This document shows positions 2,993 to 36,845 of a stretch of DNA of 64,000 bases, one piece after another (the first letter of the stretch is position 1; each line of letters begins with the position of its first letter). The position numbers were made by a program, and so were the translations under genes. The DNA comes from Chloroflexota bacterium (GTDB lineage: Bacteria > Chloroflexota > Anaerolineae > UBA2200 > JACIWT01), in the NCBI GenBank assembly GCA_014360825.1, contig JACIWT010000002.1, forward strand, positions 14,782 through 78,781, given 5' to 3'. The notes beneath the pieces are model-generated. The model did not search any database. It was not told where the DNA came from and saw only the letters and a list, made by a program, of their open reading frames with translations.

Positions 2993-3011
2993 TTCGTGCG
3001 GGGACATAGTT

Positions 3012-3041
3012 TTGACCAAATCGATGAAAATGCTTTATACT
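3012..3041 (+). promoter_or_regulatory. sigma70-like promoter for the tRNA-Pro/Gly pair: TTGACC -18- TATACT
   Basis: -35 TTGACC at 3012-3017, -10 TATACT at 3036-3041; tRNA 5' end at 3057. Confidence 0.45.
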
Positions 3042-3056
3042 ATTAATACAAGGTAT

Positions 3057-3133
3057 CGGGGCGTGGCGCAGACCGGTAGCGCGCAGCGTTTGGGACGCTG
3101 AAGTCGGAGGTTCAAGTCCTCTCGCCCCGACCA
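3057..3133 (+). tRNA. tRNA-Pro (anticodon TGG), CCA encoded
   Basis: Cloverleaf CGGGGCG...CGCCCCG acceptor stem; anticodon loop TTTGGGA; TPsiC arm GGTTCAAGTCC. Confidence 0.85.
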
Positions 3134-3134
3134 A

Positions 3135-3206
3135 GCGGGTGTAGCTCAGTGGTAGAGCTCCTGCCTTCCAAGCAGGCTGTCGCGGGTTCAAATCCCGTCG
3201 CCCGCT
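3135..3206 (+). tRNA. tRNA-Gly (anticodon TCC)
   Basis: GCGGGTGTAGCTCAGTGGTAGAGC...; anticodon loop CTTCCAA; GGTTCAAATCC T-arm; no encoded CCA. Confidence 0.85.
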
Positions 3207-3216
3207 CTAATACAAA

Positions 3217-3250
3217 TGGCCCACCTAAACCAAGGTGGGCCATTGTGTTG
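3217..3250. terminator. bidirectional intrinsic terminator hairpin (tRNAs on +, lexA on -)
   Basis: Perfect 9-bp stem TGGCCCACC/GGTGGGCCA with an 8-nt loop. T-rich run on both sides (TTGTGTTG on +, TTTGTATT on -). Confidence 0.5.
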
Positions 3251-3320
3251 CCTCTGAATCTCATTCTAACGTTTGCAAAGGGGCTTGGTCATGATTCAAT
3301 GGGTCACGAGGAGTTCTCCA

Positions 3321-3980
3321 TCAGGTAAGATGGCGAACAACCATTACGACCTTGCCCTGGACCTCGAGATCACCAGCGTGCACAAAGATCGGTTGCACAG
3401 TTGGGTTCTCTGGCTGTAAACGTACCCGGTCCTTACCTTCGCGGAAGTAGCGCTTGAGCGTAGTTTCGCCACTGCTTTTGATCCATGCCGCTACCATATC
3501 GCCATTGCGCGGCTCCGCGTCCCGCAACATGACTACAATATCACCATCATTAATGAGTGCGTCGATCATAGAGTCACCTTTCACCTTGAGCGCAAAAAGC
3601 CTGCGGGGGTCTCCGACAAATTCGGGCATGAGTTCGCGAGTCAGCGTAACGGACTCATCTGAATCGAACATGGGGAAATCAGGATCGGGCAGTGGTACAG
3701 GGCTGTTGGCAACGATCACACCGGATATTGGCAAACGCACACAAGGCAGGTTCTCCTCTCCCTGGCGTTGCACTTTCAAGATAATGCCCCGGGCGATGTC
3801 CCGCATTCGCTCAATGTAACCTTTGCGCTCCAGGGTGTCCAAATGGTGCTTGACTACTGAGGTAGATGAAATATCGAGCGCCTCGGCGATCTCGCGGATA
3901 GTTGGCGGGAACTCGTGTTCTTTAGCGTATTCAAACAGGAAATCCAGGATTCGCTTCTGGCGAGGGGATAATTCTTCCAT
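3321..3980 (-). CDS. lexA: LexA repressor (S24 peptidase)
   Basis: wHTH N-term, cleavage region, GDSM active-site Ser motif, Lys in C-domain. Start at the ATG preceded by AAGGAG (the track ORF extends 14 codons further upstream). Confidence 0.9.
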   Translation of the reverse strand: MEELSPRQKRILDFLFEYAKEHEFPPTIREIAEALDISSTSVVKHHLDTLERKGYIERMRDIARGIILKVQRQGEENLPCVRLPISGVIVANSPVPLPDPDFPMFDSDESVTLTRELMPEFVGDPRRLFALKVKGDSMIDALINDGDIVVMLRDAEPRNGDMVAAWIKSSGETTLKRYFREGKDRVRLQPENPTVQPIFVHAGDLEVQGKVVMVVRHLT

Positions 3981-4070
3981 ATCCGCTCCTTCGTCTCTAG
4001 TAGATGCACAGATGACGAACAAATCGGTGAATTTATTTATATTTTGACTTGGGCATCTATCCAGAAGTAT

Positions 4071-4084
4071 AGCACAAGTGTTCT
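4071..4084. promoter_or_regulatory. candidate LexA (SOS) box AGCACAAGTGTTCT upstream of lexA, one mismatch to GAAC-N4-GTTC
   Basis: Half-sites GCAC / GTTC with a 4-nt spacer, compared with the perfect box upstream of uvrB in this window. Overlaps a possible TTGACT-N18-TATAGC promoter. Confidence 0.3.
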
Positions 4085-4312
4085 AATTTGTCAAATTGAG
4101 ATGGACACAAATGAAAAATGTAGCGGCGATTTGACAAAAACGGCGATATATGGTATCCTAGACCTGTCTGACAGGTAGACGACTAAACAGGCAGACATCT
4201 TCCGATGGTCAATCTGTCTGCTTGACATCGCGTCGAACAGATGAAGCGGACGATGTTGTCGTGAAAGGCACGTAGGGCAAGCCCAAAGAAGTCTTTTTGC
4301 AACCTCGGAACA

Positions 4313-5062
4313 ATGGAGCAGAGGAAGAGCCCACAATTAAACTTTTTGAAGGTAGGGCCAATTCGCCTTTTCGAGCAGGTTGCCGAGCAGATTCGCGCTC
4401 TCATAGTTGAGGGACATCTGCAACCAGGGGATAAACTGCCCAGTGAGTTGGAGCTCAGCGAAGCACTCGGTGTCAGCCGGGCGTCTATCCGTGAGGCATT
4501 GCGTGCGTTAGAGTCGAAAGGGTTAATTGAAGTTAGATCTGGGGCGGGTGCGTTTGTCGCATCACGCCCCTTTTCGTTGTTCTCCGCCTCGAGCGAAGCC
4601 GTCGAGTGGCTGATAAAACAGCGCGAGTCATTGCTGCAACTCCTTGAAGTCCGAGAAAGCGTGGAAGGCTTAACGGCCTCTTTGGCAGCAGCCTCTGTGT
4701 CCAGCGAATTGCTGGAAAAATTGGGTCAGGTTGTTCGAGAGCAGGAAAAATTGTCGGGGACACTGTCTGCTCTCGATCGGCAGGTCGAGTTAGACATCCG
4801 TTTTCACGAACTCATCGCTGAGGCGAGTGGTAATACCATAGCAGAAGAGATCGTGGATGCGATTGTGGCCCGTTTTTGCGATAGCAACCGTGCAATACTG
4901 TATCTTAACAAGGGAAACCTCGAGAAGACCATAACGGAACATCGTCGCGTCATCGAGGCCCTGGCTTCTGGAGATCGCGTCAAAGCCGAGGCCGCTATGC
5001 GCGCCCACATAGCCAGGGTGCGAGCAGACATCGAAAAAGTAGAGCAGGAATCGGAACAGTAA
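4313..5062 (+). CDS. GntR/FadR-family transcriptional regulator (N-terminal wHTH, C-terminal FCD domain)
   Basis: HTH segment SELELSEALGVSRASIREALRALESKGLIEVRSGAGAFV followed by an all-alpha FCD-like C-terminus. Confidence 0.85.
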   Translation: MEQRKSPQLNFLKVGPIRLFEQVAEQIRALIVEGHLQPGDKLPSELELSEALGVSRASIREALRALESKGLIEVRSGAGAFVASRPFSLFSASSEAVEWLIKQRESLLQLLEVRESVEGLTASLAAASVSSELLEKLGQVVREQEKLSGTLSALDRQVELDIRFHELIAEASGNTIAEEIVDAIVARFCDSNRAILYLNKGNLEKTITEHRRVIEALASGDRVKAEAAMRAHIARVRADIEKVEQESEQ

Positions 5063-5066
5063 TCAG

Positions 5067-6288
<1,222 letters not shown>

Positions 6289-6382
6289 GAAAGGTTCTCG
6301 TCGTCTTGCTGGGTTCCGAACCAACGTGCTGAACGGGGCCCGGTCCACCCTAGAGGTGCGGTGGCAGACGTGAGTTGGAGCA

Positions 6383-7779
6383 GTGAAAGTGGAGAAGGTG
6401 GATTTAGTAGTCAGATCAGGAAAAATCGTCCGCTCAGATGGCATTTTCGAGGCAGGGATAGCGGTTAAGGATGGGAAGATCGTCGCTATCGGGGAAGATT
6501 ATTTGCTCCCTAAAGCCAGCCAAACGATAGATGCCAAAGGCAAATTTGTGCTGGCGGGTGTGATTGACCCCCACGTGCACATGAGAGAGCCTGGGATTGT
6601 GGAAAGGGAGGATTGGATCACAGGCACCATGGCTGCTGCCGCAGGAGGGGTTACCACTGTGTTGGATCACCCCAATACTATACCCCCGGTGAACTGTGCC
6701 AGAAATTTGCTAGCCAAAAAAGAACTAGTTGCTGGCAAAGCACTGGTTGATTTTGTCTATTTGGTGGGAATGGCGCTACGAGCATTGAGAACATAGCGGA
6801 GCAGGCTGAAGCCGGAGCAGTGGCCTTCAAAACTTTCCTGTGGCCTTATCCTGACCGCAAAGACGAGTTCGAGGGCCTTACGTGCACCGATGATGATACC
6901 CTCCTCGACATTTTTGAGGAGGTGTCAAAGACAGGCCTGATCCAGTCTTTGCATGCAGAGAGCAAGCCCATTGTGGATCATTACACCAAAAAACTCGTTC
7001 GCGCAGGCCGCAGAAAGCCTATAGACCATGAAGACTCCAGGCCGGTTTTAGCAGAAGTGGAAGCCGTTTCTCGAGTCGTGCTTTTCGCTATCGAAACCGG
7101 AGTGAGGCTTAACATCCCTCACATCAGCAGCGGATCAGCTGCAGCAATAGTGAGAGAGGCAAAAAAGAGGGGTTATCGGAATATCACTGCCGAAACATGC
7201 CCTCAATATCTTTGTTTGACCAAAGAGCGCATGTTGGAGGTAGGGCCTTATGCTAAAGTGAATCCTCCTCTCCGCTCTCGAGAGGAGCAAGAAAAACTCT
7301 GGGAGTGTCTGCTGGACGGTACGATTGATACCATAGGCAGCGATCACGCCCCCCTTTTGCCAGAGCACAAAGAGAGAGGGTGGGAAGATATTTTTGCTGC
7401 ACCGGCCGGTAGTGCGGCGGTGGAATTTTCTCTACCAGTGATGCTCACCGCAGTTCATCAAGGCCGAATCGACCTGCAAACTCTCACCAAACTAATGTCT
7501 GAAAACGTGGCCAAACTCTACGGACTGTACCCACAGAAGGGAGTCATTCAGGTTGGCTCCGACGCCGATTTAGTTATCGTGGACATGGGAAGAGAAATGA
7601 CCATCGACCGACGCAGGGCACAGACCAAACAAAAAGATGCTGCACGCATGTTCGATGGCTGGCGTGTAGTGGGTGTCCCAATTATGACCATTGTCCGAGG
7701 TGCTGTGGTCATGTGTGATGGGGAGATAGTGGGTAGGCCTGGGTACGGCAAATTTATCTCTCCTTTGAAAGCGAGGTGA
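6383..7779 (+). pseudogene. pyrC: dihydroorotase-like cyclic amidohydrolase (pyrC) interrupted by a 1-nt frameshift in a G-run near 6763-6768
   Basis: DPHVHMREPG metal-binding N-term in frame 2 (6383-6796). Remainder (GNGATSIENIAEQAEAGAVAFKTFLW..., LHAES, TIGSDHAP) in frame 1 from 6751. One extra G in TTGGTGGGAATGG restores a continuous ~465-aa protein. Confidence 0.7.
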
Positions 7780-7856
7780 ATCCCCGGGCTATGCCTGTTT
7801 TTCCCCATCCAGAGAGCGCAGTTTGACCGGTGGGTTACCAGATTTCTGACTAGAAG

Positions 7857-8819
7857 ATGGCTGTGACCGCGTGTTGTGCATCTAATCGAAAGCGATTTCG
7901 CGACGTCTTGGCTATTCGTAACCCGGTTATACTTGGCTCTGGGCCTCCTGGTCACAGTGCCAAAGGTCTTGTTCGATATGGCCAGTATGCCGGAGCTGTG
8001 GTAAGCAAATCAATCACTTTCCTGCCACGGAAGGGCAATCCCCATCCCCGTGTTGTCAGTCTAGGGAATTTTGGGCTAATCAATTGGGAGAACCTTCCGA
8101 ACCCGGGCTACAAGCGATTTGCCGATGAATTGCGCGCTGCTAAGGCCCAGTGCAAGTGTCCAGTTATTGCTTCATTGGGCCCTTCTCACAATATAGACGA
8201 ACTCAGGACGATGGCTTTGAGCTTCGAAGAGGCGGGCGCTGATGCATTAGAGTTGAACTTTAAATGGGGCTTCGACCCGAATACCGGTCAAACTCGGTAT
8301 AACATGCAGGCTGGCAAAGAGGGCTTTGAGAGCACCTCCATTTTTGAGATCATTGTAACGCTGAAGAAAGCAGTGTCTATACCCATCATTGCCAAACTCG
8401 CGGCCTTGGCTGGCGATCTCGTGAATAACGCCAAGGCGGCAGAATCGGCAGGTGCTGATGCGATTACCGCTATCAATACCATTTTCCCGGCGATGAAAAT
8501 AGATATCACGCGGCAAAAACCAGCTCTCTCCACCTGTTTCGGTGGCTTATCTGGTAAGTCAATACTACCCTTATCCGTGGCTACAGTGTATAGGATCTAC
8601 GAAGCAGTGAATATACCGATCATTGGCTGCGGCGGTGTGACTTCTGGAGAGGATGCCCTAGAGATGATTATGGCCGGGGCGGATGCCGTTCAAATTTGCA
8701 CTGCCGCGATGGTGGAGGGCCCCTCTGTTTTCCGGCGCATCAACGATGAAATAAATACGTTAGTGAAGGGGATAGGGTTCGGTTCCGTGAATGAGTGCCG
8801 CGGGGTGGCACATCTCTAA
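7857..8819 (+). CDS. pyrD: dihydroorotate dehydrogenase-like FMN TIM-barrel protein (PyrD class 1 family); canonical catalytic Cys/Ser segment not conserved
   Basis: NPVILGSG, GNPHPRVV, GLINWENLPNPG and IIGCGGVTSGEDALEMIMAGA match the class 1 DHODH/DPD-like fold. The NLSCPN motif is replaced by NFKWGF. Exact start uncertain. Confidence 0.7.
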   Translation: MAVTACCASNRKRFRDVLAIRNPVILGSGPPGHSAKGLVRYGQYAGAVVSKSITFLPRKGNPHPRVVSLGNFGLINWENLPNPGYKRFADELRAAKAQCKCPVIASLGPSHNIDELRTMALSFEEAGADALELNFKWGFDPNTGQTRYNMQAGKEGFESTSIFEIIVTLKKAVSIPIIAKLAALAGDLVNNAKAAESAGADAITAINTIFPAMKIDITRQKPALSTCFGGLSGKSILPLSVATVYRIYEAVNIPIIGCGGVTSGEDALEMIMAGADAVQICTAAMVEGPSVFRRINDEINTLVKGIGFGSVNECRGVAHL

Positions 8820-8933
8820 ATACGCGCAATGGCTGCTGTGAGATTTCTCTCAGGAGCTGGCATTATTGGCCTATATTGGCCAATCGAAATGGAATAATCT
8901 ATCAATACAATTAACAATTAAGGAGGTTGGACA

Positions 8934-9911
8934 ATGAGGTTACTGATAGCTTTGGGCGGTAACGCGATAAAGCAAGCTCACGAGCAAGGCACCGCGGAGG
9001 AACAATTCAGGAACTGCGGGGTAACCACCAGATTCATTGCTGAGATTGTCGGCAGAATGGAAGAGGATGACCGGCTGATCATAACCCATGGCAATGGTCC
9101 GCAAGCAGGCAACCTTTTGGTGCAGCAAGAGATGAGCAAGGGTGTCGTACCCCCTCAGACGATGGACATCGTTGGAGCGATGACCCAAGGGCAGATAGGT
9201 TATATGCTTCAGCAGACGCTGATGAATTACCTGAAAGATAAAGGTTTGGATGTGCCTGTGTGCGCGGTAGTGAATCAAGTGTTGGTGAGTGGGGATGACC
9301 AGGAGTTCATTGGCGAAGCGGCTTCGAAGCCTGTGGGGAACTTTTTCACCGAGGAGGAAGCCAAGAGACTTAAGCAAGAGCATCCGGAGTACATCATAAA
9401 GAAAGTCAAACCGAATGGGGAGAGAGTTTGGAGGAGGACAGTACCATCTCCCGATCCAATAGCCAACGTGGAGAGCGAAGCGATCAAGCGGATGGTGGAT
9501 GCAGGCATCGTTGTCATTGCATCCGGGGGTGGGGGGATACCAGTGGTGTTAGATGAGAGAGGTCACTATCAGGGTGTGGAGGCGGTGATAGATAAAGACC
9601 TGGCCGGAGAGCGATTAGCGGAGGTGGTCAATGCGGACGTCTTCCTGATTTTGACCGATGTGGAGAAGGTGAAGTTGAACTTTGGCAAGCCTGATGAGAG
9701 GGAGATAGACCGGATGACGATATCGGAGGCCAAGAGATATCTGGCAGAGGGGCATTTTCTTGCCGGGAGCATGGGGCCCAAGGTCAAGGCGTGTATAAGG
9801 TTCTTAGAGTGGGGTGGGGAGACGGCGATCATAACCTCATTGGATAAGGCAATCGATGCTTTGGAGGGCAGGACTGGTACCAGGATTGTGCGAGATCGCG
9901 TTAAGAATTGA
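8934..9911 (+). CDS. arcC: carbamate kinase
   Basis: ALGGNA and THGNGPQAG motifs; length and overall similarity to ArcC. SD AAGGAGG upstream. Confidence 0.9.
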   Translation: MRLLIALGGNAIKQAHEQGTAEEQFRNCGVTTRFIAEIVGRMEEDDRLIITHGNGPQAGNLLVQQEMSKGVVPPQTMDIVGAMTQGQIGYMLQQTLMNYLKDKGLDVPVCAVVNQVLVSGDDQEFIGEAASKPVGNFFTEEEAKRLKQEHPEYIIKKVKPNGERVWRRTVPSPDPIANVESEAIKRMVDAGIVVIASGGGGIPVVLDERGHYQGVEAVIDKDLAGERLAEVVNADVFLILTDVEKVKLNFGKPDEREIDRMTISEAKRYLAEGHFLAGSMGPKVKACIRFLEWGGETAIITSLDKAIDALEGRTGTRIVRDRVKN

Positions 9912-9974
9912 GGCGTGGTAGAGGCCTTTGCATGGCTCGATAGAGGCAGGGTTTGGACATATTAGTGCAAAAGA

Positions 9975-10003
9975 AAAGGGTCTCCTGCAATGGGAGACCC
10001 TTT
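9975..10003. terminator. bidirectional intrinsic terminator between arcC (+) and the tRNA block (-)
   Basis: Perfect 10-bp stem AAGGGTCTCC/GGAGACCCTT with loop TGCAATG. TTTAT on + and TTTTCTTTT on -. Confidence 0.6.
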
Positions 10004-10065
10004 ATGCTATTTACACAAACTGGTTGTGAGACAAATGTCTGCAATTGGCGTGCAACCTATTGTAG

Positions 10066-10148
10066 TGGGGCGGGAGGGATTCGAACCCTCATGGAGTTGC
10101 CTCCAGCGGATTTTAAGTCCGCAGCGTCTGCCGTTTCGCCACCGCCCC
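10066..10148 (-). tRNA. tRNA-Leu (anticodon TAA), long variable arm
   Basis: Reverse complement GGGGCGGTGGCGAAACGGCAGACGCTGCGGACTTAAAATCCGC...; anticodon loop CTTAAAA; extra arm TGGAGGCAACTCCATGA. Confidence 0.85.
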
Positions 10149-10192
10149 AAAATGAAAAGAGCAGCCTCGCTACCAGCCCCAAAAACATACAG

Positions 10193-10264
10193 AGGCGACG
10201 ATCGGATTTGAACCGATGATCGGGGTTTTGCAGACCCCTGCCTTAGCCACTTGGCTACGTCGCC
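10193..10264 (-). tRNA. tRNA-Cys (anticodon GCA)
   Basis: Reverse complement GGCGACGTAGCCAAGTGG...GGGGTCTGCAAAACCCC...GGTTCAAATCC; anticodon loop CTGCAAA. Confidence 0.85.
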
Positions 10265-10268
10265 CCAC

Positions 10269-10343
10269 TGGAGCGGAAGACGGGATTCGAACCCGCGCCC
10301 CTCTCCTTGGCAAGGAGATGCTCTACCGCTGAGCCACTTCCGC
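10269..10343 (-). tRNA. tRNA-Gly (anticodon GCC), CCA encoded
   Basis: Reverse complement GCGGAAGTGGCTCAGCGGTAGAGCATCTCCTTGCCAAGGAGAGGGGCGCGGGTTCGAATCCCGTCTTCCGCTCCA. Confidence 0.85.
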
Positions 10344-10348
10344 CCATA

Positions 10349-10421
10349 TGCCGAGGCCCAGAATTGAACTGGGGACACCTTGATTTTCAGTCAAGTGCTC
10401 TACCATCTGAGCTACCTCGGC
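10349..10421 (-). tRNA. tRNA-Phe (anticodon GAA)
   Basis: Reverse complement GCCGAGGTAGCTCAGATGGTAGAGCACTTGACTGAAAATCAAGGTGTCCCCAGTTCAATTCTGGGCCTCGGCA. Confidence 0.85.
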
Positions 10422-10487
10422 TATCCCATTAGCTGCTTGTATTAATTTTATACGATGTTCGGGATATTGTCAAAATTAGCGCGGCGC

Positions 10488-10943
10488 TCACGACTGGCTA
10501 CCCTGTGCAGCCCGAGCCTCTCTGGCTTTGTGCAAGGCGAGGGATTCGCTTGCCAGCATACTGAATGTAGTCCCATCCAGTGTTTCCAACAACTGTGTTT
10601 GGGCTGTTTTCAGTACTCGCGCGACGGCGCAGGTTTCCACGCGCGGGCATCCCTCCTGAATGTTCAGACACCGGCTCAGTGAAATCGGGCCCTGCAACGC
10701 TTCGATGACCTGGCGCAGTGTGATCTCACAAGCGGGCCGCGCCAAAGAGAATCCTCCTTTCACACCCCGATGTGAGTGAACCAGACCCCCTTTGGCTAGA
10801 TCCTGAAAGATCTTGGCCAAGTAACTTTCTGGTATATCCTGGCTTTTGGCGATTTCATGGAGCAAAGTTACCTTCTCAAACGGCTGCGTAGCCAGATACA
10901 AGATGCCAAGTATGCCGTAGTCTATCCCCCGGGTTATTTTCAC
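10488..10943 (-). CDS. Rrf2-family transcriptional regulator with three Cys (likely Fe-S cluster ligands; IscR/NsrR-like)
   Basis: N-term KITRGIDYGILGILYLA wHTH. Cys cluster CLNIQEGCPRVETC. GTG start preceded by AGGGAGGT (the track ORF extends 44 codons further upstream). Confidence 0.8.
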   Translation of the reverse strand: MKITRGIDYGILGILYLATQPFEKVTLLHEIAKSQDIPESYLAKIFQDLAKGGLVHSHRGVKGGFSLARPACEITLRQVIEALQGPISLSRCLNIQEGCPRVETCAVARVLKTAQTQLLETLDGTTFSMLASESLALHKAREARAAQGSQS

Positions 10944-11089
10944 AATCTGGACCTCCCTTTGCGTGCGAGAAATTTGTTCCCGCTGAGATTGTAATGCAAG
11001 AATACCGAGAACACAAGCGCAATGTGCTCTCTTAACGCGCCGTGAACCAGAGGGCCTATGGACGAATTCCATCATATTTTCACATGAAC

Positions 11090-11118
11090 TTGACGAAATT
11101 CGTGATCTGTGGTATAAT
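11090..11118 (+). promoter_or_regulatory. sigma70-like promoter TTGACG -17- TATAAT for the AsnC-REC operon, with palindrome ACGAAATTCGT in the spacer
   Basis: -35 at 11090-11095, -10 at 11113-11118. 11-bp perfect palindrome at 11093-11103; a related ACGAATTCC half-copy at 11062-11070. Confidence 0.5.
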
Positions 11119-11145
11119 TACTAACGAAAGGAGCGGAAATTACCT

Positions 11146-11982
11146 TTGGGATATGCGATGGATGCGATAGACCGCCAAATCATCGCCTTGCTGCAAACGG
11201 ACGGACGTATGTCCAACGTGGACATCGCGCGCACCATTGGCGTCGCAGAGGCTACCGTGCGCAAGCGGATTGACCGCTTGCTGAGCGAGGGCCTAGTGCG
11301 TGTTGTGGCCATGCCAGCCGTAGATAGATTGGGCTTGGAAGTCGAAACAGTCATCATGCTCAAAGTCGATCTTGGACAAGTTGCCCGCATTGGCGAACAA
11401 TTGGCAGCCATGAAAGAGGTGCGGTCCGTCAAATATACCACTGGCGAATACGACATTATCCTAGAGGCAGTTTTCCCTTCCGATGAGGATTTGCTCCGAT
11501 TTTTGACCAGCCGCCTTGCCAGAATACAAGGCATCCGAGCCACTGCTACCTCTCACGTCTTGAAGAATGTCAAACAATCTAGCGACTGGATACTGCCGCG
11601 GGAAGGCCCTCCCCTCATCCTGATTGTGGATGATGACCCGGATTTCGTCGAGGCCAGCCGGATCGTGTTAGAGACCGCCGGTTATCAAGTCATCTCGGCG
11701 ACCAGTGGAGAACAAGGGTTGCGTGCAATGCGCCAGGCACGGCCAGATCTTGTGATCCTCGACGTGATGATGAGCGGTATTTTGGATGGGCTTGACGCCA
11801 GCATGCGGATGAAAACAGAACGTGACCTTAGAAGAACGCCAGTATTGATGATCTCTTCTATTACCACTTCTGATTACGCTGCGATGTTCCCCACTGATGA
11901 ATACGTTCCGGTCGAGAACTTTCTCTCTAAGCCAGTGAGCCCCAACCAGTTGTTGGCAGAGGTCAAGCGGCTATTGGAATAG
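11146..11982 (+). CDS. Lrp/AsnC-family regulator (HTH + RAM domain) fused to a C-terminal CheY-like receiver domain
   Basis: N-term IDRQIIALLQTDGRMSNVDIARTIGVAEATVRKRIDRL plus RAM-like segment. C-term LILIVDDDPDF...LDVMM...SSIT...SKP receiver with the FPTDEY motif. Confidence 0.85.
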   Translation: MGYAMDAIDRQIIALLQTDGRMSNVDIARTIGVAEATVRKRIDRLLSEGLVRVVAMPAVDRLGLEVETVIMLKVDLGQVARIGEQLAAMKEVRSVKYTTGEYDIILEAVFPSDEDLLRFLTSRLARIQGIRATATSHVLKNVKQSSDWILPREGPPLILIVDDDPDFVEASRIVLETAGYQVISATSGEQGLRAMRQARPDLVILDVMMSGILDGLDASMRMKTERDLRRTPVLMISSITTSDYAAMFPTDEYVPVENFLSKPVSPNQLLAEVKRLLE

Positions 11983-12021
11983 CAGTAGGAGTTACATCCC
12001 ACATTTCTACAAGGAGGTGAT

Positions 12022-12399
12022 ATGGCCAAAATCTTAGTGGTTGACGACGATCCAGATTTCGTGGAAATCACGAGAACGATTCTAGAGGCGAACGGCTATG
12101 AGGTGAGTACGGCGGCCAACGGCGATCAGGCACTCAACTCGATGCGCAAAGATGTCCCAGATCTGGTGCTGCTGGACGTGATGATGTCCACCCTACTGGA
12201 TGGGCTTAATTTGAGCCACGTCATGAGCGGAGATCCTGTGCTCAAACAAGTGCCGATCATTATGGTCTCTTCTATCACCGATAGCCCACATGCAGGCATG
12301 TTCCCTACAGATGAGTACATACCCATTGATGCTTGGATCTCCAAACCCGTCCAACCCGATGATCTTCTGAAGAAAGTTGCGCAGTACATCAAGAAGTAG
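12022..12399 (+). CDS. single-domain response regulator receiver protein (REC paralog B)
   Basis: KILVVDDDPDF, LLDVMMS, SSIT, FPTDEY, SKPV. All canonical phospho-acceptor residues present. Confidence 0.85.
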   Translation: MAKILVVDDDPDFVEITRTILEANGYEVSTAANGDQALNSMRKDVPDLVLLDVMMSTLLDGLNLSHVMSGDPVLKQVPIIMVSSITDSPHAGMFPTDEYIPIDAWISKPVQPDDLLKKVAQYIKK

Positions 12400-12415
12400 C
12401 CGAGGAGCCGACCCA

Positions 12416-12832
12416 ATGCCCCCTGTAGGTAAAATCCTAGTGGTGGACGACGACCCAGACTTTGTGGAGTACACGCGCATTGTGCTCGAGTCCCAAGGGT
12501 ATCAGGTGCAAACTGCTGCCACGGCTGAACTGGCTCTTCAGATGATGCGCGAAGACAAGCCAGACGTCGTGCTCCTCGATGTGATGATTTCCTATGTGTT
12601 GGACGGCTTGAATGTCACGCGGCGAATGCGTGATGACCCAAATCTCAGAGATGTGCCTGTGATCATGATCTCGGCGATCGTGAGCAGAGAGGAGGCAGGG
12701 CTATTTCCGACAGATGAGTATCTATCTGTGGATGCATTCCTGACCAAACCCATTGACCCAGCTGATCTGCTGAAGCAAGTGGACAGGCTAATCCAACGCC
12801 GCAACAACGGCGGGACAAAAAAGGAGGGATGA
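12416..12832 (+). CDS. single-domain response regulator receiver protein (REC paralog C); stop overlaps the nuoE start (ATGA)
   Basis: KILVVDDDPDF, LLDVMIS, SAIV, FPTDEY, TKPI. ATG at 12416 preceded by GAGGAG. Confidence 0.85.
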   Translation: MPPVGKILVVDDDPDFVEYTRIVLESQGYQVQTAATAELALQMMREDKPDVVLLDVMISYVLDGLNVTRRMRDDPNLRDVPVIMISAIVSREEAGLFPTDEYLSVDAFLTKPIDPADLLKQVDRLIQRRNNGGTKKEG

Positions 12833-13287
12833 TGGAACCAGAAGTTAGGGTGGCCGATCCGGCCAGACGTTCTATGCTGTTGACTGCTCTTTACATAGCC
12901 CAAGAACAATATGGCTACTTGACCAGAGATGCCATCGAACGTGTAGCCAACCGGTTGGGGCTTCCTTTGACCGAAGTGTATTCGATGGCCAGTTTCTACA
13001 CCTTGTACCGCACCCAACCCACGGGACGCTACGTACTGCAGGTCTGCGAAGGACTCTCGTGCCACTTGGTGGGTGGCGCGGAACGACTGGTTGATTACCT
13101 GCGCAAGAAACTCGGCATCGAAGTTGGTGAGACAACCAAAGATGGTCTATTCACGCTGCAGACTGTGCAATGCCTGGCCTCCTGCGGTACGTCTCCGGCC
13201 ATGCGCGTGAACGACGCGCTCTACGAAAACATGACTGCAGAGAAAGTGGATGAATTAATCGAGACGCTAAGGGGGTACCATGTTTGA
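12829..13287 (+). CDS. nuoE: NuoE/HoxE/FdsG-like NAD(H)-dependent oxidoreductase 24-kDa subunit (thioredoxin-like [2Fe-2S])
   Basis: CEGLSCHLVGG ... CLASCGTSPAM Cys pattern. Confidence 0.9.
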   Translation: MMEPEVRVADPARRSMLLTALYIAQEQYGYLTRDAIERVANRLGLPLTEVYSMASFYTLYRTQPTGRYVLQVCEGLSCHLVGGAERLVDYLRKKLGIEVGETTKDGLFTLQTVQCLASCGTSPAMRVNDALYENMTAEKVDELIETLRGYHV

Positions 13288-14548
13288 GAAAGTTTTGACG
13301 CGTAATTTTGGCTTGCCCCGGTCGGAAACCATTGATGTCTACATAGCCAATGGCGGCTACCAGGCTCTCCCCAAGGTGCTGCGCGAGTACACACCGGAGC
13401 AGGTGATCGAGATCGTTACCGCTTCGGGATTGCGCGGCCGCGGCGGTGCTGGCTTCCCGGCGGGCAGAAAGTGGAGTTTTATGCCCAAGGATCCAGACAT
13501 CGAGAAATACGTCTGTGTAAACACAGATGAGGGAGAGCCCGGCACGTTCAAAGACCGCGAACTGGTGGAGAAAGACCCCCATCAAATTATCGAGGGCGTG
13601 ATTATCGCCAGTTATGCGGTCGGCGCCCACCGCGCCTTTGTTTATATCCGCGGGGAATTCTTCCTTGGCGTAAAGCGCTGGATTAAGGCCATTGATGATG
13701 CCTACGCCAAGGGTTTCCTGGGCAAGAATATCTTGGGTAGTGGCTTTTCCTTAGATCTATCTGTGCACCGCGGCGCTGGCGCTTACATTTGCGGTGAAGA
13801 AACTGCCCTGATCGAATCGTTGGAGGGCAAACGTGGTGAGCCCCGGAAGAAGCCACCTTACCCTGCAAGCGTGGGCTTGTGGGGCAAACCGACCCTGGTG
13901 CACAATGTAGAGACGTTGGCCAATGTCCCCCATATCATCAACCGGGGTGCTAAATGGTATACCAGCATGGGCACACCTAAGAGCACTGGCCCCAAGATTT
14001 TCTGCGTTAGCGGGCATGTCAGGAACCGCGGCATATTCGAACTGCCACTTGGAGTACCCTTGAGGGAGATCATTTACGAGCATGCTGGTGGGATGGCTTT
14101 CGACAAAAAGTTGAAAGCCATCATCCCTGGCGGTGCTTCCACGCCTATGCTCACGCCGGACCAGATAGATATCACTATGGATTTTGAATCGCTGGAGGCG
14201 GCCGGAAGTATGCTTGGGACCGGGGCGATCATTGTTATGAATGAAGATACTTGCATGGTGGATGTGGCGCGGCGGTTGATGCATTTCTTCGCCCACGAGT
14301 CCTGTGGACGTTGCACGCCTTGCCGAGTGGGCACACATCACATGCTGAGTATTCTGGAGCGCCTGGAGCATGGCGAAGGCAAGCCAGAGGATATGGAGAG
14401 CTTGGAGGAAATCGCCCGAGGCATGCGGGGCCTGACTTTTTGTCCGATGGGAGATGCGGCAGCAAACCCAATTCTGAGTGGGCTGAAACTCTTCCGGGAT
14501 GAATATGAATATCATGTCAAACAAAAACGCTGCGCTGTCGCGGCATAG
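13280..14548 (+). CDS. nuoF: NuoF/HoxF/FdsB-like 51-kDa subunit (NADH- and FMN-binding, [4Fe-4S])
   Basis: GRGGAGFPAGRKW, ICGEETALIESLEGKRGEPR, ESCGRCTPCRVG. Confidence 0.9.
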   Translation: MFEKVLTRNFGLPRSETIDVYIANGGYQALPKVLREYTPEQVIEIVTASGLRGRGGAGFPAGRKWSFMPKDPDIEKYVCVNTDEGEPGTFKDRELVEKDPHQIIEGVIIASYAVGAHRAFVYIRGEFFLGVKRWIKAIDDAYAKGFLGKNILGSGFSLDLSVHRGAGAYICGEETALIESLEGKRGEPRKKPPYPASVGLWGKPTLVHNVETLANVPHIINRGAKWYTSMGTPKSTGPKIFCVSGHVRNRGIFELPLGVPLREIIYEHAGGMAFDKKLKAIIPGGASTPMLTPDQIDITMDFESLEAAGSMLGTGAIIVMNEDTCMVDVARRLMHFFAHESCGRCTPCRVGTHHMLSILERLEHGEGKPEDMESLEEIARGMRGLTFCPMGDAAANPILSGLKLFRDEYEYHVKQKRCAVAA

Positions 14549-14579
14549 TGAAAAGGTGACCTGTGGTGAGGAGGAAGAT

Positions 14580-14957
14580 ATGGCAAAGATTCTAATTGTG
14601 GATGATGACCCAGATTTTGTGGAAGCCACGCGTATGACTCTGGAAGCCAATGGTTACCAGGTGATCAGCGCTGGCAGCGGAGATGAGGGCCTGGCCAAAG
14701 TGAAAGCAGAAGCACCAGACTTGGTGATCCTGGATGTGATCATGTCATCGGTGTTAGATGGCTTGAGCATGAGCCAGCGCATGCAGGAGAACCCAGAGCA
14801 TAAGAGAATCCCTATTTTGATGGTTACCTCTATTGCCAACACGGACTACGCAGCGCTGTTCCCGACTGACGAATACATTAGCATCGATGGCTTTCTCTCT
14901 AAGCCAGTGCCACCGGCTGTCTTGTTGCAACGCGTTGCGGAACTGTTGGGTCGGTAA
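14580..14957 (+). CDS. single-domain response regulator receiver protein (REC paralog D)
   Basis: KILIVDDDPDF, ILDVIMS, TSIA, FPTDEY, SKPV. ATG preceded by GAGGAGGAAG. Confidence 0.85.
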   Translation: MAKILIVDDDPDFVEATRMTLEANGYQVISAGSGDEGLAKVKAEAPDLVILDVIMSSVLDGLSMSQRMQENPEHKRIPILMVTSIANTDYAALFPTDEYISIDGFLSKPVPPAVLLQRVAELLGR

Positions 14958-14964
14958 AATCCAA

Positions 14965-15012
14965 GATCCTCCCGCAGGTTTCGTCTCCAGAACTTCGCCC
15001 TGCGGGAGGATC
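14965..15012 (+). other. perfect 14-bp inverted repeat GATCCTCCCGCAGG / CCTGCGGGAGGATC with a 20-nt loop, 8 nt after the REC-D stop; no U-tract
   Basis: Seen directly in sequence. Could be an RNA stem-loop (processing/stability element) or a protein-binding palindrome. Confidence 0.4.
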
Positions 15013-15099
15013 GGACTACCACGGGAACGCATTTGGATTCACTACTGCAGTACACCAGTGAGCGTTGTTTTGTTTGATGGTGAGTAGGAGGATAGTGAT

Positions 15100-15579
15100 A
15101 TGCCCAAACCGAAAATCAAAGCCGGCGGTATAATTCGCAATGAACATCTGGCTAAAATAGGCGTTTTTTCTGCCCCTGACCGATGTGGCCTGGCCTGTGA
15201 TGTGCTACGCGCTCTCGGGGATCGAGAAATCAACGTTGAATTCATCGTCCAATGTACTGACCTGGCAAATAACAGCCATATTGTCTTGTGCGTACGGGAA
15301 GATGTGCTCGATGCAGCTCTCGCTGCACTCAAGCCTGTGCAAGCCACGGTAAGGGCACAGGACATCGTCAGCCAGCGCAACATGGCTGTCATTTCCATCT
15401 TTGGCCCCGATTTCCGAGAGCGGCCCGCCATAGCAGCGGCAGTTTTTGAGGCCATGGCTTCCGTAGGGATCAACATCATAGCGATCAGCACCTCCATTTC
15501 TACGGTCTCGTGCCTCATTGATGGCGATAAGGTGGACGATGCCGTAGTGGCCTTACGGGATCACTTCGAACTCCCTTGA
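15100..15579 (+). CDS. tandem ACT-domain protein (aspartokinase regulatory beta-subunit-like)
   Basis: Two ACT-like beta-alpha-beta-beta-alpha-beta repeats (AVISIFGPDF...GINIIAISTS). SD AGGAGG upstream. Confidence 0.65.
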   Translation: MPKPKIKAGGIIRNEHLAKIGVFSAPDRCGLACDVLRALGDREINVEFIVQCTDLANNSHIVLCVREDVLDAALAALKPVQATVRAQDIVSQRNMAVISIFGPDFRERPAIAAAVFEAMASVGINIIAISTSISTVSCLIDGDKVDDAVVALRDHFELP

Positions 15580-15707
15580 ACTGCGCTTGGAGTCACTGGT
15601 CAGGATTCTTTGTCTGTAACATCTGACTCTTGAATCTCACGCTTTCACATATTCAACCTGAGGGTATTAAAAGGCTGTGCCTGAATCGGCAAGGGAAGGG
15701 GCTGGAC

Positions 15708-17099
15708 ATGGCTGACGTGTTGCATACACCTACCGAGCAAGAATTAAGGGATCGGACAGACTGGCTGATCCGTGCCCGTTGGCTTGTGGCTTCTGGTGAA
15801 CTTTTCGTTGTCTTGGTGGCGAACTACCTCTTGCCCGAAACTTTGCCGATGCTCTCCCTTCTGGCCACGATAGCGAGCCTTTGTATATGCAACACCATTT
15901 TCACCTTTTACTCCCAGCAGTTACGCTCCGTGAGCGCCTCTTCCCAGCATTACGTTCGCTTCACTCACTTTCAACTCACATTCGACATTCTATTTCTGAC
16001 GATCTTCCTGCATTTCTTCGGCGGATTAGAAACGCCTTTCTTCATTTTCTATCTCATCTACGTAGTCATCGCTAGCATCCTCTTGCCCAACAAGACCGCT
16101 TTCATCTATGCAGGTTTAGTCAGCCTGTTCTATCTCGCCTTGCTCATTTTGGAGTGGCGGGGCTTGATCCCTCACTACAACCTGGCTGGGTTCCGCATCC
16201 CGATACGATTCCAACAGCCCATTCACATCTTCACTGCCGTCTTCACCTTGGCCGCCACCGCTTTCCCGACCGCGTATTTCGCCTCCAACATCGTGGCTCG
16301 GTTAAACGAAAGGGAAAAGGAGTTGATCGAAGCCAACCTATCCTGTGAGACGAGAGCCCAGGAACTGGCGGAACTGAACGCCCGACTAGAGAGATTGGAA
16401 AAGGATAGGTCCCAGTTCATTCGCTTGGTCACGCACGAACTACGAGCCCCTGTGGCTGCCATCCAAAGCTATCTTCGACTGATCCTGGAGGGTTACGTTC
16501 CACCCGAGAAGCAACGAGAAATCATCGAGAAATCGGAGCGGCGGGCGCTGGAGCAATTGGCTCTGATTAGCGACCTGCTGGACCTGGCACGATTGCAAGA
16601 GCGGCGGGAAGAGGAACGTAAAGTCGAACTAGTGGATGTAGCCGAGGTCTTGCAGGGTGTCACAGACTTAATGCAGGCCCGCGCCGAGGAAAAGGACCTT
16701 CTGTTCACAGTGCAGATAGACCCTGGTGTGCCACCAGTACAGGCTAACCTCGAGCATGTTAAGCAACTGTGGACAAACCTCATTAGCAATGCCATCAAGT
16801 ACACCGAACCCGGCGGCATCGTAGTGGTTAGCCTATCGCAAAATCCCAATTATGTGGTGGGAATGGTGCGTGATACAGGTATTGGCATGACCCCAGAACA
16901 GTTGGCGCATATTTTCGAGGAGTTCTACCGCACGGATGAGGCGAAGGCAATGGAGCGCCAGGGTACTGGTCTGGGCCTTTCTATCGTCAAACGCATTGTG
17001 GAAACGTACGGTGGAAGAATCTGGGTGGAGTCAGAAAAGGGTAAAGGCAGCAAGTTCAGTTTTGCCTTGCCCAAGGCACCGTCACGAAAGGGTATATAG
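15708..17099 (+). CDS. membrane-embedded sensor histidine kinase (multi-TM N-domain, HisKA, HATPase_c)
   Basis: ~6 hydrophobic helices. H-box LVTHELRAPVAAIQSY. G-box GTGLGLSIVKRIVETYGGRIWVESE. Start at the ATG after GGAAGGGG. Confidence 0.85.
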   Translation: MADVLHTPTEQELRDRTDWLIRARWLVASGELFVVLVANYLLPETLPMLSLLATIASLCICNTIFTFYSQQLRSVSASSQHYVRFTHFQLTFDILFLTIFLHFFGGLETPFFIFYLIYVVIASILLPNKTAFIYAGLVSLFYLALLILEWRGLIPHYNLAGFRIPIRFQQPIHIFTAVFTLAATAFPTAYFASNIVARLNEREKELIEANLSCETRAQELAELNARLERLEKDRSQFIRLVTHELRAPVAAIQSYLRLILEGYVPPEKQREIIEKSERRALEQLALISDLLDLARLQERREEERKVELVDVAEVLQGVTDLMQARAEEKDLLFTVQIDPGVPPVQANLEHVKQLWTNLISNAIKYTEPGGIVVVSLSQNPNYVVGMVRDTGIGMTPEQLAHIFEEFYRTDEAKAMERQGTGLGLSIVKRIVETYGGRIWVESEKGKGSKFSFALPKAPSRKGI

Positions 17100-17168
17100 T
17101 CCAAACAGGGAAGACAGCTATCCACCAGTGGATGGTCGTTTTTTCCTCAATACTAGAATACTAGCCCT

Positions 17169-17639
17169 CTACAACGCACCCATCACGCGATCCAATTTTA
17201 AGCCTTTGGCTTGTCTCAATCGCTTGCTGATTACTTCTGCCAGTTTCTTCATCACTACAAATCCGATGTGACTGTCCTGTTCCATTAACCCGTTCATGGC
17301 TTTGCCCTCAATGGCGATGAGGCGAACATCGCTGATGCAACGGGCAGAGGCAGTAAGTCGGCGCGGCCTCACCAGTGCTGACCAGCCGATTACATCACCC
17401 GGTTGGTCTACCACAATCGTAGTATCCTGGCAGGCATCCGGCTGGGGGCAAACCTCGTATTCCAGGCTCACCTTGCCTTCTTGGAGGATATACAGCATAT
17501 TGGCTTCTTCACCCTTGCTGAAAATATACGCTCCTTTGGCGTGATGTTCCTCGCGGCACAAGGGGATTATTTTCTGCAAGTCTTCGTCTCCCAACTCGGA
17601 GAATAACTCACTTGCTCGCAATGTCTCAATCTTGACCAT
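17169..17639 (-). CDS. cyclic-nucleotide-binding domain protein (CAP-like effector domain only, no HTH)
   Basis: Beta-roll cNMP-binding fold signature (GDVIGWSALV..RRLTASARC). Confidence 0.75.
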   Translation of the reverse strand: MVKIETLRASELFSELGDEDLQKIIPLCREEHHAKGAYIFSKGEEANMLYILQEGKVSLEYEVCPQPDACQDTTIVVDQPGDVIGWSALVRPRRLTASARCISDVRLIAIEGKAMNGLMEQDSHIGFVVMKKLAEVISKRLRQAKGLKLDRVMGAL

Positions 17640-29833: not shown

Positions 29834-29845
29834 AGTGTTCTCCTC

Positions 29846-30391
29846 TTAGTCATACTTGAAATGCTCAGGTGGCAGAATCACAGGCATGCGTCCCGCGAGC
29901 AACTCTGAAAGCGCGTAGAAAAGGGCGTCTGCACTGGGTGGGCAACCGGGGATGAAAAGATCCACCTTTACCACCTTATCAACGCCTGTAACTACATCCA
30001 GCGGCATTCCGAGTTCTGGTGAATCGGGAATGACGCCGTCCACAACGCTCTCAGCCTCTAAGTAAGCGCGCTTTAACGCCGCTTCGGTGCCAACCAGATT
30101 GCGCGAGGCGACAATGCCACCAAAGGTAGCGCAGTCACCCACTGCGATGAGGATTTTGCAGCGTTCACGCATTCTCTTGGCCACCTCAACATTGTGCGTG
30201 TTACTGATCGCACCGGTGAGGATGCCAACGGTTACGCCGTCTTCTGGCGGATGCTTTAGGTCTGTGACCGGGCTTGATGTGAATTCCACCGCTTCCAGCA
30301 ACTGGACAATGCGTTCGTCAATGTCCAGTAACGACATGTGACATCCTGCACAGGCGGCTAGCCAATCCGTGGCGACTTTGACTTTTGCCAT
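29846..30391 (-). CDS. hoxY: [NiFe] hydrogenase small subunit, group 3 (HoxY-like)
   Basis: ACAGCHMS proximal-cluster Cys motif, GDCATFGG, IPGCPP. ATG after AAGGAGA (the track ORF extends 6 codons further upstream). Confidence 0.85.
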   Translation of the reverse strand: MAKVKVATDWLAACAGCHMSLLDIDERIVQLLEAVEFTSSPVTDLKHPPEDGVTVGILTGAISNTHNVEVAKRMRERCKILIAVGDCATFGGIVASRNLVGTEAALKRAYLEAESVVDGVIPDSPELGMPLDVVTGVDKVVKVDLFIPGCPPSADALFYALSELLAGRMPVILPPEHFKYD

Positions 30392-30405
30392 CGTGGGTTC
30401 TCCTT

Positions 30406-32187: not shown

Positions 32188-32299
32188 CTCAGAGCCCAGC
32201 CTCCTTTCTAAGTTTTATTTTAGGTTATCTTTTGGCTGGGGAAAAGTCGCCATTGACATCTCCCCTACCCTGTGCGCCATATTCCGTTGTTTTCGGAGC

Positions 32300-35350: not shown

Positions 35351-35382
35351 TGAGATCCTCCTCGGGATACGAAGATATTTTT

Positions 35383-35763: not shown

Positions 35764-35805
35764 TGAACAGCCTCCTCTGTGGATATATTTTCCGCAGCGA
35801 ATTGG

Positions 35806-36825: not shown

Positions 36826-36845
36826 CTTGCCATATCCTCCTTGAT

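Follow-up and report, generated by a model that had tools for sequence, protein, structure and literature searches.

Receiver domains interleaved with a NuoE-NuoF flavoprotein pair in a conserved two-component operon of Anaerolineae

Why should the genes of an NADH-binding flavoprotein pair, NuoE and NuoF, lie between the receiver genes of a two-component system? The question is raised by a locus of the Anaerolineae assembly GCA_014360825.1, in a 64,000-nucleotide stretch of contig JACIWT010000002.1 (positions 14,782 to 78,781) that is referred to here as the window. A first-pass annotation of this DNA, made from the letters alone, had pointed out four CheY-like receiver (REC) domains within 3.8 kb, one of them fused to an Lrp/AsnC regulator, with nuoE and nuoF embedded among them. 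The module is self-contained and vertically conserved in Anaerolineae, and the operon together with its cross-phylum synteny points to a link between two-component signaling and NADH-linked hydrogen/formate metabolism.

The plus strand from 11090 to 17146 carries one compact gene string, which runs from a predicted promoter to a predicted terminator in the order Lrp/AsnC-REC (REC-A), REC-B, REC-C, NuoE, NuoF, REC-D, a hairpin, an ACT-pair protein and a 6TM-PilS-type histidine kinase. The Lrp/AsnC-REC gene occupies positions 11158–11982, with an alternative TTG start at 11146, and matches Pfam HTH_AsnC, AsnC_trans_reg (RAM) and Response_reg. It is followed by REC-B (12022–12399, 125 residues; Response_reg, 1.2e-21), which has an AAGGAGG ribosome-binding site ahead, and by REC-C (12416–12832, 138 residues; Response_reg), the stop codon of which overlaps the start of nuoE. 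NuoE (12829–13287) is a thioredoxin-like [2Fe-2S] protein (Pfam 2Fe-2S_thioredx, 1.8e-48) and NuoF (13280–14548, 422 residues) is the FMN/NADH/[4Fe-4S] protein (Complex1_51K, SLBB, NADH_4Fe-4S). REC-D (14580–14957, 125 residues; Response_reg) begins 31 nt past nuoF behind a GAGGAGG ribosome-binding site.

The REC-C/nuoE junction, GGGATGATGG, overlaps by 4 nt (ATGA) or by 1 nt (TGATG), depending on which nuoE ATG is chosen, and nuoE overlaps nuoF by 8 nt. The ATGA and 8-nt overlaps had been described in the first-pass annotation and can be read directly from the sequence, by which REC-C is predicted to be translationally coupled to nuoE. The open reading frames (ORFs) also lie where they had been placed, apart from the starts of REC-C and REC-D. 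Longer ORFs are possible from 12377 and 14499, respectively; in place of the 151–152 residues assigned earlier, the likely lengths are 138 residues from ATG 12416 and 125 residues from ATG 14580, each start standing behind a good ribosome-binding site, and the public gene call for REC-C is also 138 residues.

All four receivers score 76.5–77.6 bits against Pfam PF00072 (cut-off 30.2) and are the only ones of this type in the window. Their description as four paralogues is borne out by Pfam and by alignment with CheY, at pairwise identities of 52–58%, slightly under the 55–60% first claimed. The shared motifs that had been listed (DDDPDF, LDVMM, SSI(T), SKP and FPTDEY) are found in all four, with variation to LDV(M/I)M, S-S/A-I and (S/T)KP. 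In the CheY alignment each receiver has the acidic pair (DDD), the phospho-acceptor Asp (LD(V)MM), the Ser/Thr (SS/SA/TS) and the Lys ((S/T)KP). The acidic pair, the Asp and the Lys do not vary across 54 sequences of the REC-B type and 42 of Lrp-REC; the same holds for the Ser pair in the Lrp-REC set, and very nearly so in the REC-B set. Since the Asp, Lys and Ser residues of the pocket are kept, the four receivers look functional and phospho-competent. Their assignment as pseudo-receivers was rejected because every phospho-acceptor residue is conserved. Flavodoxin-like electron carriers, which have a related fold, were also considered and rejected, as the matching profile is Response_reg and the Asp pocket is intact.

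The AlphaFold2 (AF2) model of REC-B (pLDDT 83.9) adopts the (βα)5 fold and aligns with DivK, RR468 and PhoB at TM 0.8–0.9. Helix 4 is modeled as one turn (residues 89–92), and the FPTDEY motif (residues 94–99) is placed in a very-low-confidence loop between strand 4 and strand 5. The Lrp-REC model shows the same loop and short helix 4. A PDB sequence search with REC-B returned generic receivers only, and because the best alignments end at residue 85, ahead of the motif, FPTDEY is without a solved relative. The Foldseek search against the PDB likewise returned generic receivers (DivK, FrzS, RR468) and no hint of function. Conserved yet not confidently folded alone, the FPTDEY loop would be consistent with a partner-binding element.

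Relatives were sought among 1.84 billion representative proteins, which yielded 253,070 receiver matches. No more than 86 of these reach E ≤ 1e-30, and the majority of the 86 contain several receivers, the scores of which add up. Single-domain representatives at 47% identity or above number about 30. The motif variants among these representatives (FPTDS, FPTNEH, FPTGEY, LPTDED, FPDDE and others) always precede P-(I/V)-D-x-W/F-(I/L)-(S/T)-K-P-(V/I)-x-P. REC-B itself falls in a set of more than 120 clusters at 74–100% identity, the named sources of which are Chloroflexota/Anaerolineae. Given the few close relatives among so many matches, the receivers are classified as a narrow, well-populated environmental clade and not as generic CheY homologues, in keeping with the first-pass annotation. 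One REC-B orthologue (P0041, 82% identity), on a 2.6-kb contig, is labeled 'Candidatus Hadarchaeum sp.'; it is most likely mis-binned because all other named sources are Chloroflexota or Anaerolineae. Four tandem two-receiver proteins of 253–271 residues (P0241–P0244) carry an N-terminal domain of the EKPF type, which is that of other phyla, and a C-terminal domain of the FPTD type, so that two sub-clades are joined in one polypeptide.

The fusion of a receiver to the C-terminus of a complete Lrp/AsnC regulator, an order singled out at the outset, is real and conserved. As in other Lrp/AsnC (feast/famine) regulators, N-terminal HTH_AsnC and RAM domains are present at full length, both above the Pfam cut-offs (PF13404, 59.5 bits; PF01037, 57.8 bits), and the AF2 model comprises three folded domains connected by low-confidence linkers. 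The three domains are shared by at least 120 orthologous clusters at 57–100% identity, with named sources in Chloroflexota/Anaerolineae. None of the NCBIfam equivalogs tried (Lrp, AsnC, LysM, LrpA) scores above its cut-off with this protein, the best being LysM at 71.2 against 180 bits. Because of the C-terminal receiver, phosphorylation may be added to the amino-acid-binding input or may replace it.

NuoE passes the NCBIfam complex-I model TIGR01958 (163.4 against a cut-off of 142.4) and NuoF passes TIGR01959 (609.5 against 558.65) and NF010120 (500.1 against 389). The four cysteines of the NuoE [2Fe-2S] site are at positions 73, 78, 115 and 119, and NuoF has the motifs GRGGAGF, EGEPG, GAGAYICGEE, CGRCTPC and FCPMGD (FMN/NADH and four-Cys [4Fe-4S]); with all cofactor motifs intact, both proteins are probably active. 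Among solved structures, NuoF scores 473 bits against Thermus Nqo1 and 474–480 bits against the cores of bifurcating HydB (7t2r_B and 7q4v_B), but only 282–326 bits against FdsB chains. With NuoE, the FdsG-type model NF004638 (formate dehydrogenase gamma) gives 117 against a cut-off of 198, and the HoxE model is also below its NCBIfam cut-off. These scores class the pair as complex-I-type and not FdsG/FdsB-like. At 422 residues NuoF is a minimal form that aligns only to the core of full-length HydB chains (584–630 residues), and it lacks the extra N-terminal [2Fe-2S] and C-terminal 2x[4Fe-4S] domains of bifurcating HydB. By Pfam, the operon has no HydA or HoxH gene, and there is no catalytic partner gene in the module; no other nuo gene was found in the window or in any module locus. 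Orphan NuoEF operons, termed 'FP fragments', were noted in Chloroflexi without complex I by Hug et al. 2013 (PMC3971608), who call their function unclear and describe stand-alone NuoEF with no other nuo genes nearby for RBG-2 and RBG-1351.

Genomes and metagenomes were scanned for related loci (numbered L), each scan being an 80-locus sample. The core order was found in 10 distinct Anaerolineae loci, in which the fusion proteins are 58–77% identical where measured. The full order, a divergent Rrf2 gene and then Lrp-REC, REC, REC, NuoE, NuoF, REC, ACT and kinase, is present in GCA_014360755.1 and GCA_040960625.1, both of which continue after the kinase with a cNMP gene and hypE-D-C-F. The core Lrp-REC, REC(s), NuoE, NuoF, REC is seen in L001, L003, L005, L007, L015, L016, L085 and L086; L011 and L013 are partial views of it. 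The flanking genes vary between the module loci while the core stays. In L085 the next gene encodes prolyl-tRNA synthetase, and ACT, kinase and hyp genes are missing. L086 has six receivers with a Pyr_redox_2 flavoprotein inserted among them. The REC-C/nuoE overlap, or a gap of at most 14 nt, is found in the window, L001, L003, L005, L007, L016 and L085. Each paralogue has its own orthologues at the matching position across modules. The best conserved of them, REC-D, is 66–88% identical across modules compared with 52–58% to its own paralogues, which implies that the duplication is old and the copies are non-redundant, and it keeps FPTDE(Y/S)I in every module.

The inserted protein of L086 (region 749–11077) is a 456-residue Pyr_redox_2/Pyr_redox_dim flavoprotein between receivers, and thus a second NAD(P)H flavoenzyme wrapped in receivers. 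The same locus has two small ORFs, one of them DUF3267, between REC and nuoE.

Is the association confined to Anaerolineae? When genomes were scanned at species level, identity to REC-B fell sharply from 52% or above to 42% or below. The nearest receivers of other phyla (36–45% identity) have DDDPDF, LDVMM and PVD-x-F-x-EKPV-x-P, but not FPTDEY, and they are often directly 5' of nuoE-nuoF, frequently overlapping. In Fermentibacteria (L023 and L024) the order is REC-NuoE-NuoF-HydA with a GTGA overlap, HydA being an [FeFe] hydrogenase by Pfam. REC-NuoE-NuoF occurs in Victivallales (L020) with a 4-nt overlap or a 2-nt gap, and in Phycisphaerae (L028) with a 7-nt overlap. The Omnitrophota locus L029 has a receiver and a 6TM_PilS kinase ~2.8 kb upstream of NuoE-NuoF-FdhA, and in Dehalococcoidales (L019) a receiver adjoins FdhA-NuoE-NuoF/GltD. 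In Verrucomicrobiota and another Phycisphaerae locus the distance between the receiver and NuoE-NuoF/GltD ranges from some hundreds of bases to a few kilobases.

In the genome scan, NuoE/F are found in 15 of the 25 best-ranked loci and in none of the 55 lower-ranked ones (Fisher p = 4.9e-10). The metagenome scan used a generic LDVMM-type pattern that reaches distant receivers and is a weak sample, many contigs being too short to judge; among the matches listed, Nuo/Hox/Fdh neighbors occur in 7 of the 14 top matches and in 4 of the 66 others (p = 2.5e-4). Chance neighborhood of receivers and nuoEF was rejected by these Fisher tests. The linkage to nuoEF is thus conserved, both in the 10 Anaerolineae loci and among the sister receivers of other phyla, and the clade is narrow, whereas the earlier proposal had named generic receivers with no conserved linkage as the outcome that would speak against it.

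The same clade is found joined to other proteins. In L014 a FocA/FNT formate channel (9059–10372) ends in a receiver with 56% identity to REC-B, and this FocA-REC architecture recurs in at least 120 clusters at 71–100% identity in Anaerolineae. Two further examples are L169 (10001–11254) and L170 (10001–11251), the latter flanked by a Cache-HAMP kinase, a REC-HATPase protein and a REC-HisKA-HATPase protein; Hdr-like CCG/Fer4 genes and an FlpD gene come next in L170. A ribbon-helix-helix (RHH)-REC fusion also exists in the clade, and stand-alone members adjoin CCG/Fer4 (Hdr-like) proteins and cytochrome bd oxidase. From these fusions and neighbors, the receiver is repeatedly a C-terminal control domain of, or a neighbor to, formate, hydrogen or redox proteins.

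The Victivallales locus L020 encodes, in addition, an [FeFe]-hydrogenase H-cluster domain joined to HisKA and HATPase_c (281–2317), a candidate histidine kinase for hydrogen sensing. Next come receiver genes, and the REC-NuoE-NuoF set of this locus is 8 kb away.

A branched two-component pathway, with transcriptional output through Lrp-REC and protein-level coupling between receivers and NuoEF, is proposed tentatively as the leading explanation, one that falls just short of being probable. The kinase would phosphorylate all four receivers. Phosphorylated Lrp-REC would alter the oligomerization or DNA binding of its Lrp part and would control transcription of its own operon, and probably of the neighboring hyp/fdh/hox genes too. 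The stand-alone receivers would act by protein contact through the altered helix 4-strand 5 face and, produced together with NuoEF, would bind it as phosphorylation-dependent regulatory partners. The kinase signal would thereby adjust the oxidation of NADH and the supply of electrons to hydrogen/formate enzymes. The least certain step is the direction of information flow between receivers and NuoEF; action of the receiver on the enzyme is favored over the enzyme as sensor because of the receiver-first enzyme operons elsewhere and the FocA-REC fusions. A broader proposal is more doubtful, namely that the clade (DDDPDF ... PVD-x-F/W-x-(S/E)-KP-V-x-P, with helix 4 remodeled) would comprise phospho-switched regulatory subunits of NuoEF-type modules, and of FocA in sister lineages, through which kinases would post-translationally control hydrogenase, formate dehydrogenase and NADH-diaphorase in Chloroflexota, the PVC group, Fermentibacteria and Omnitrophota. 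The Anaerolineae module would then be the most elaborate case, adding the Lrp-REC branch.

Several observations weigh against the branched pathway. All of its mechanism is drawn from gene order. REC-C, the nuoE-coupled receiver, is without FPTDEY in the more divergent modules L007, L011, L015, L016 and L085, so the motif cannot be the sole determinant of NuoE binding. L009, a 20-kb locus that covers about 10 kb on either side of its receivers, has Lrp-REC, two receivers, ACT and kinase but no nuoEF, which indicates that the signaling part can occur without adjacent nuoEF. As the clade also adjoins CCG/Fer4 proteins, cytochrome bd and the Pyr_redox_2 flavoprotein, the link may be to redox metabolism generally. 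Finally, since the NCBIfam complex-I models are passed, NuoEF could simply be the N-module of the organism's complex I.

The last point leads to another explanation, in which an ordinary two-component system, autoregulated through Lrp-REC, would merely be co-expressed with nuoEF as cargo, perhaps the complex I N-module, and the stand-alone receivers would be phosphate sinks or connectors that shape its kinetics. Multiple single-domain receivers that act as phosphate sinks are well known, Sinorhizobium CheY1/CheY2 being an example, and the parts are separable, given L009 without nuoEF and L085 without ACT and kinase. However, REC-C overlapping nuoE and REC-D right after nuoF are kept across 58–100% identity of the fusion protein despite changing flanks, the tight REC-to-nuoE junction recurs in four or more other phyla, where neither a kinase nor a DNA-binding regulator adjoins the operon, and the 64-kb window has no other nuo gene; this account is considered unlikely. 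Improbable too is the reverse flow of information, in which NuoEF would sense the NADH/NAD+ ratio by the redox state of its FMN/Fe-S centers and pass it to the receivers or the kinase, and so to transcription by Lrp-REC. An accessory sensor is plausible because the kinase has only its 6TM domain and no cytoplasmic sensor domain, and the module lacks a catalytic partner gene for NuoEF. An enzyme homologue serves as sensor in the regulatory hydrogenase HoxBC with HoxJ/HoxA, and the L020 neighborhood has the HydS-like [FeFe] domain fused to a histidine kinase. The orphan FP fragments of Chloroflexi lacking complex I, of unclear function according to PMC3971608, would also suit a sensor. Against this, the related receiver elsewhere is the first gene of real enzyme operons (REC-NuoE-NuoF-HydA) in which NuoEF is a working subunit, the FocA-REC fusions show the clade acting on effectors, and no mechanism is known that feeds information from a redox protein into a receiver domain.

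The first-pass annotation had also expected NuoEF to be the FdsG/FdsB partners of the FdsA-type fdhA 11 kb away, which encodes a selenocysteine formate dehydrogenase; the receivers would then regulate an NAD-dependent formate dehydrogenase. The N-terminal Fe-S domains of fdhA are NuoG-like and of the kind that docks a NuoEF-type module; the window, L005, L011 and L016 each have focA, fdhD, mobA or fdhA close to the module; and the related receiver and kinase of L029 lie upstream of NuoE-NuoF-FdhA. The expectation is nevertheless not supported, and the partnership is judged very unlikely. NuoF is far closer to Nqo1/HydB than to FdsB in bit score, the FdsG model is below its cut-off, and fdhA in the window, L011, L019 and L029 adjoins another pair, NuoE2 with NuoF-GltD or a long NuoF. 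Moreover, fdhA is absent within 10 kb of the modules of L085 and L086, and the fdhA of the window has two premature stops besides its selenocysteine codon.

How does the proposed pathway compare with systems already described? CheY, DivK and CpdR are examples of single-domain response regulators working through protein contact, as is the SdrG 'FAT GUY' family, which is marked by a PFxFATGY motif. The receivers described here resemble them as stand-alone (βα)5 domains with a complete phospho-acceptor pocket, the best structural matches being DivK, the FrzS receiver and RR468, and they resemble SdrG-type receivers as a clade defined by a conserved motif on the helix 4-strand 5 side. Unlike these regulators, they have a helix 4 cut to one turn, with the invariant, low-confidence FPTDEY loop in its place, and gene order suggests that they partner with redox enzymes (NuoEF) and a formate channel instead of flagellar motors, kinases or proteases. 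NuoE-NuoF itself is like the Nqo2-Nqo1 fragment of complex I in that the models are passed, the motifs are complete and the size is minimal as in Thermus Nqo1. It is also like the modules of HydABC, NiFe-HydABCSL, HoxEFU and FdsABG, since NuoF scores as high against HydB as against Nqo1 and related receivers in other phyla precede NuoE-NuoF-HydA or lie upstream of NuoE-NuoF-FdhA. It differs from HydABC-type modules in the lack of a catalytic subunit gene and of the extra Fe-S domains of HydB, and in HoxE and FdsG models that stay below cut-off. In hydrogen sensing, the regulatory hydrogenase HoxBC is coupled to the kinase HoxJ and the regulator HoxA; there, as in HydS-type systems and here, a homologue of a redox-enzyme module is encoded with two-component genes in a hydrogen-metabolism neighborhood. 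The present locus differs in having an NADH-binding flavoprotein pair instead of a hydrogenase, four receivers, and an output of the Lrp/AsnC and not the NtrC type. It also differs from the orphan NuoEF operons of Chloroflexi, for which the excerpted text of PMC3971608 makes no mention of receivers, in that the genes are interleaved and translationally coupled with receivers in a two-component operon.

All parts of the operon belong to known families, and it is their combination that is undescribed in the literature found. In line with the earlier suggestion that the arrangement had not been reported, the literature search gave no paper on receiver-NuoEF operons or on Lrp/AsnC-REC fusions; the one relevant result was the account of orphan NuoEF by Hug et al. 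2013. No description was found for the Lrp/AsnC-REC fusion, the FPTDEY clade, the receivers that bracket a stand-alone NuoEF or the REC-NuoE-NuoF triad, and as far as the searches show the FocA-REC architecture is undescribed as well. Three of these unreported architectures, Lrp/AsnC-REC, FocA-REC and REC-NuoE-NuoF, are abundant in environmental Anaerolineae. Two-component control of redox metabolism is normally thought to be transcriptional. If the receivers bind NuoEF, they would form a direct phospho-switch at the point of NADH entry or exit of soluble hydrogenases, formate dehydrogenases and diaphorases, which would explain an adjustment of electron flow within seconds in fermentative and syntrophic anaerobes and would provide a function for the orphan FP-fragment operons noted in Chloroflexi more than 10 years ago.

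Downstream of REC-D, a long GC-rich hairpin without a U-tract is predicted at 14960–15015 (+) with a minimum free energy (MFE) of -32 kcal/mol and z = -4.1, and none of 200 shuffles folds as well. Hairpins of unrelated sequence are found at the same place after REC-D in L001, L013 and L086. The element is a probable partial terminator or mRNA-stabilizing structure that would split the REC/NuoEF genes from the ACT/kinase genes, and its recurrence fits a lower expression of the latter. The stand-alone ACT-pair protein (15100–15579, +; Pfam ACT_9, ACT_7 and ACT) resembles the regulatory domain of aspartate kinase, although the NCBIfam aspartate-kinase models match its C-terminal region only and below cut-off; its gene is conserved beside the kinase in L001–L016, L086 and L009. 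The membrane histidine kinase (15630–17099, +; alternative start ATG 15705) matches Pfam 6TM_PilS, HisKA (52 bits) and HATPase_c (104.7 bits). Its H-box is THELRAP, with His269 of the 489-residue ORF, and besides the 6TM PilS-like domain it has no cytoplasmic sensor domain. The operon thus encodes an H-box/ATPase kinase with receiver partners, four in the unit, as a two-component system should; related REC-kinase pairs adjoin in L029 (6TM_PilS kinase) and L017. The ACT-pair protein and the kinase belong to the unit as first annotated, but the cNMP-binding gene (17169–17639) does not, as it is on the opposite strand and convergent.

The ends of the unit are marked by consensus matches only. The predicted sigma-70-like promoter (11090–11118, +), shortly 5' of the first gene, matches 11 of 12 consensus positions (TTGACG, a 17-nt spacer and TATAAT) and has the extended -10 TG. 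The intrinsic-terminator-like hairpin (17117–17146, +) has an 8-bp stem followed by the T-run CGTTTTTTCC. An Rfam search of the whole window identified tRNAs only, and the operon has no riboswitch or known leader. Divergent to the operon is the gene of an Rrf2-family regulator (10488–11075, -; Pfam Rrf2, 2.4e-34; NCBIfam rrf2_super above cut-off), which is 64–70% identical in L001, L003 and L005 and absent in L007, L085 and L086, and is therefore a conserved neighbor in the closer relatives only.

In the window, the module is followed by hypFCDE and [NiFe] hydrogenase genes. At 28406–37616 (-) is a cluster for a soluble [NiFe] hydrogenase that has a flavoprotein module of its own, with genes for a PHP protein, NuoE2, a small HATPase_c-only protein, a 126-residue ORF with no Pfam match, a 1039-residue NuoF-GltD fusion, a NuoG-like subunit with a molybdopterin domain, and HoxY-like and HoxH-like subunits. 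The fdhA of the window (25060–27828, -), which is of the FdsA type, adjoins this cluster, and the NuoE2/NuoF-GltD pair also adjoins fdhA in L011 and L019. Its single reading frame is broken by three stops. The TGA is at the selenocysteine position (CARL-U-HSS, near 26725), while the TAG and the TAA each replace a conserved Gln codon (CTL-Q-DL near 27451 and NNV-Q-GA near 26125) by a C-to-T change. Either the gene has recently become a pseudogene or the assembly contains errors here. Two further genes are split. An aspartate/ornithine carbamoyltransferase (5067–6288, +) is divided into two ORFs that overlap in different frames, and a dihydroorotase-like amidohydrolase (6383–7779, +) into two ORFs, the starts of which are separated by 437 nt, a distance not divisible by 3. 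Both look like frameshifts and, with the fdhA stops, suggest an error-prone assembly or gene decay. Four tRNA genes are clustered at 10066–10421 (-), just past Rrf2, and a pair is located at 3057–3206 (+).

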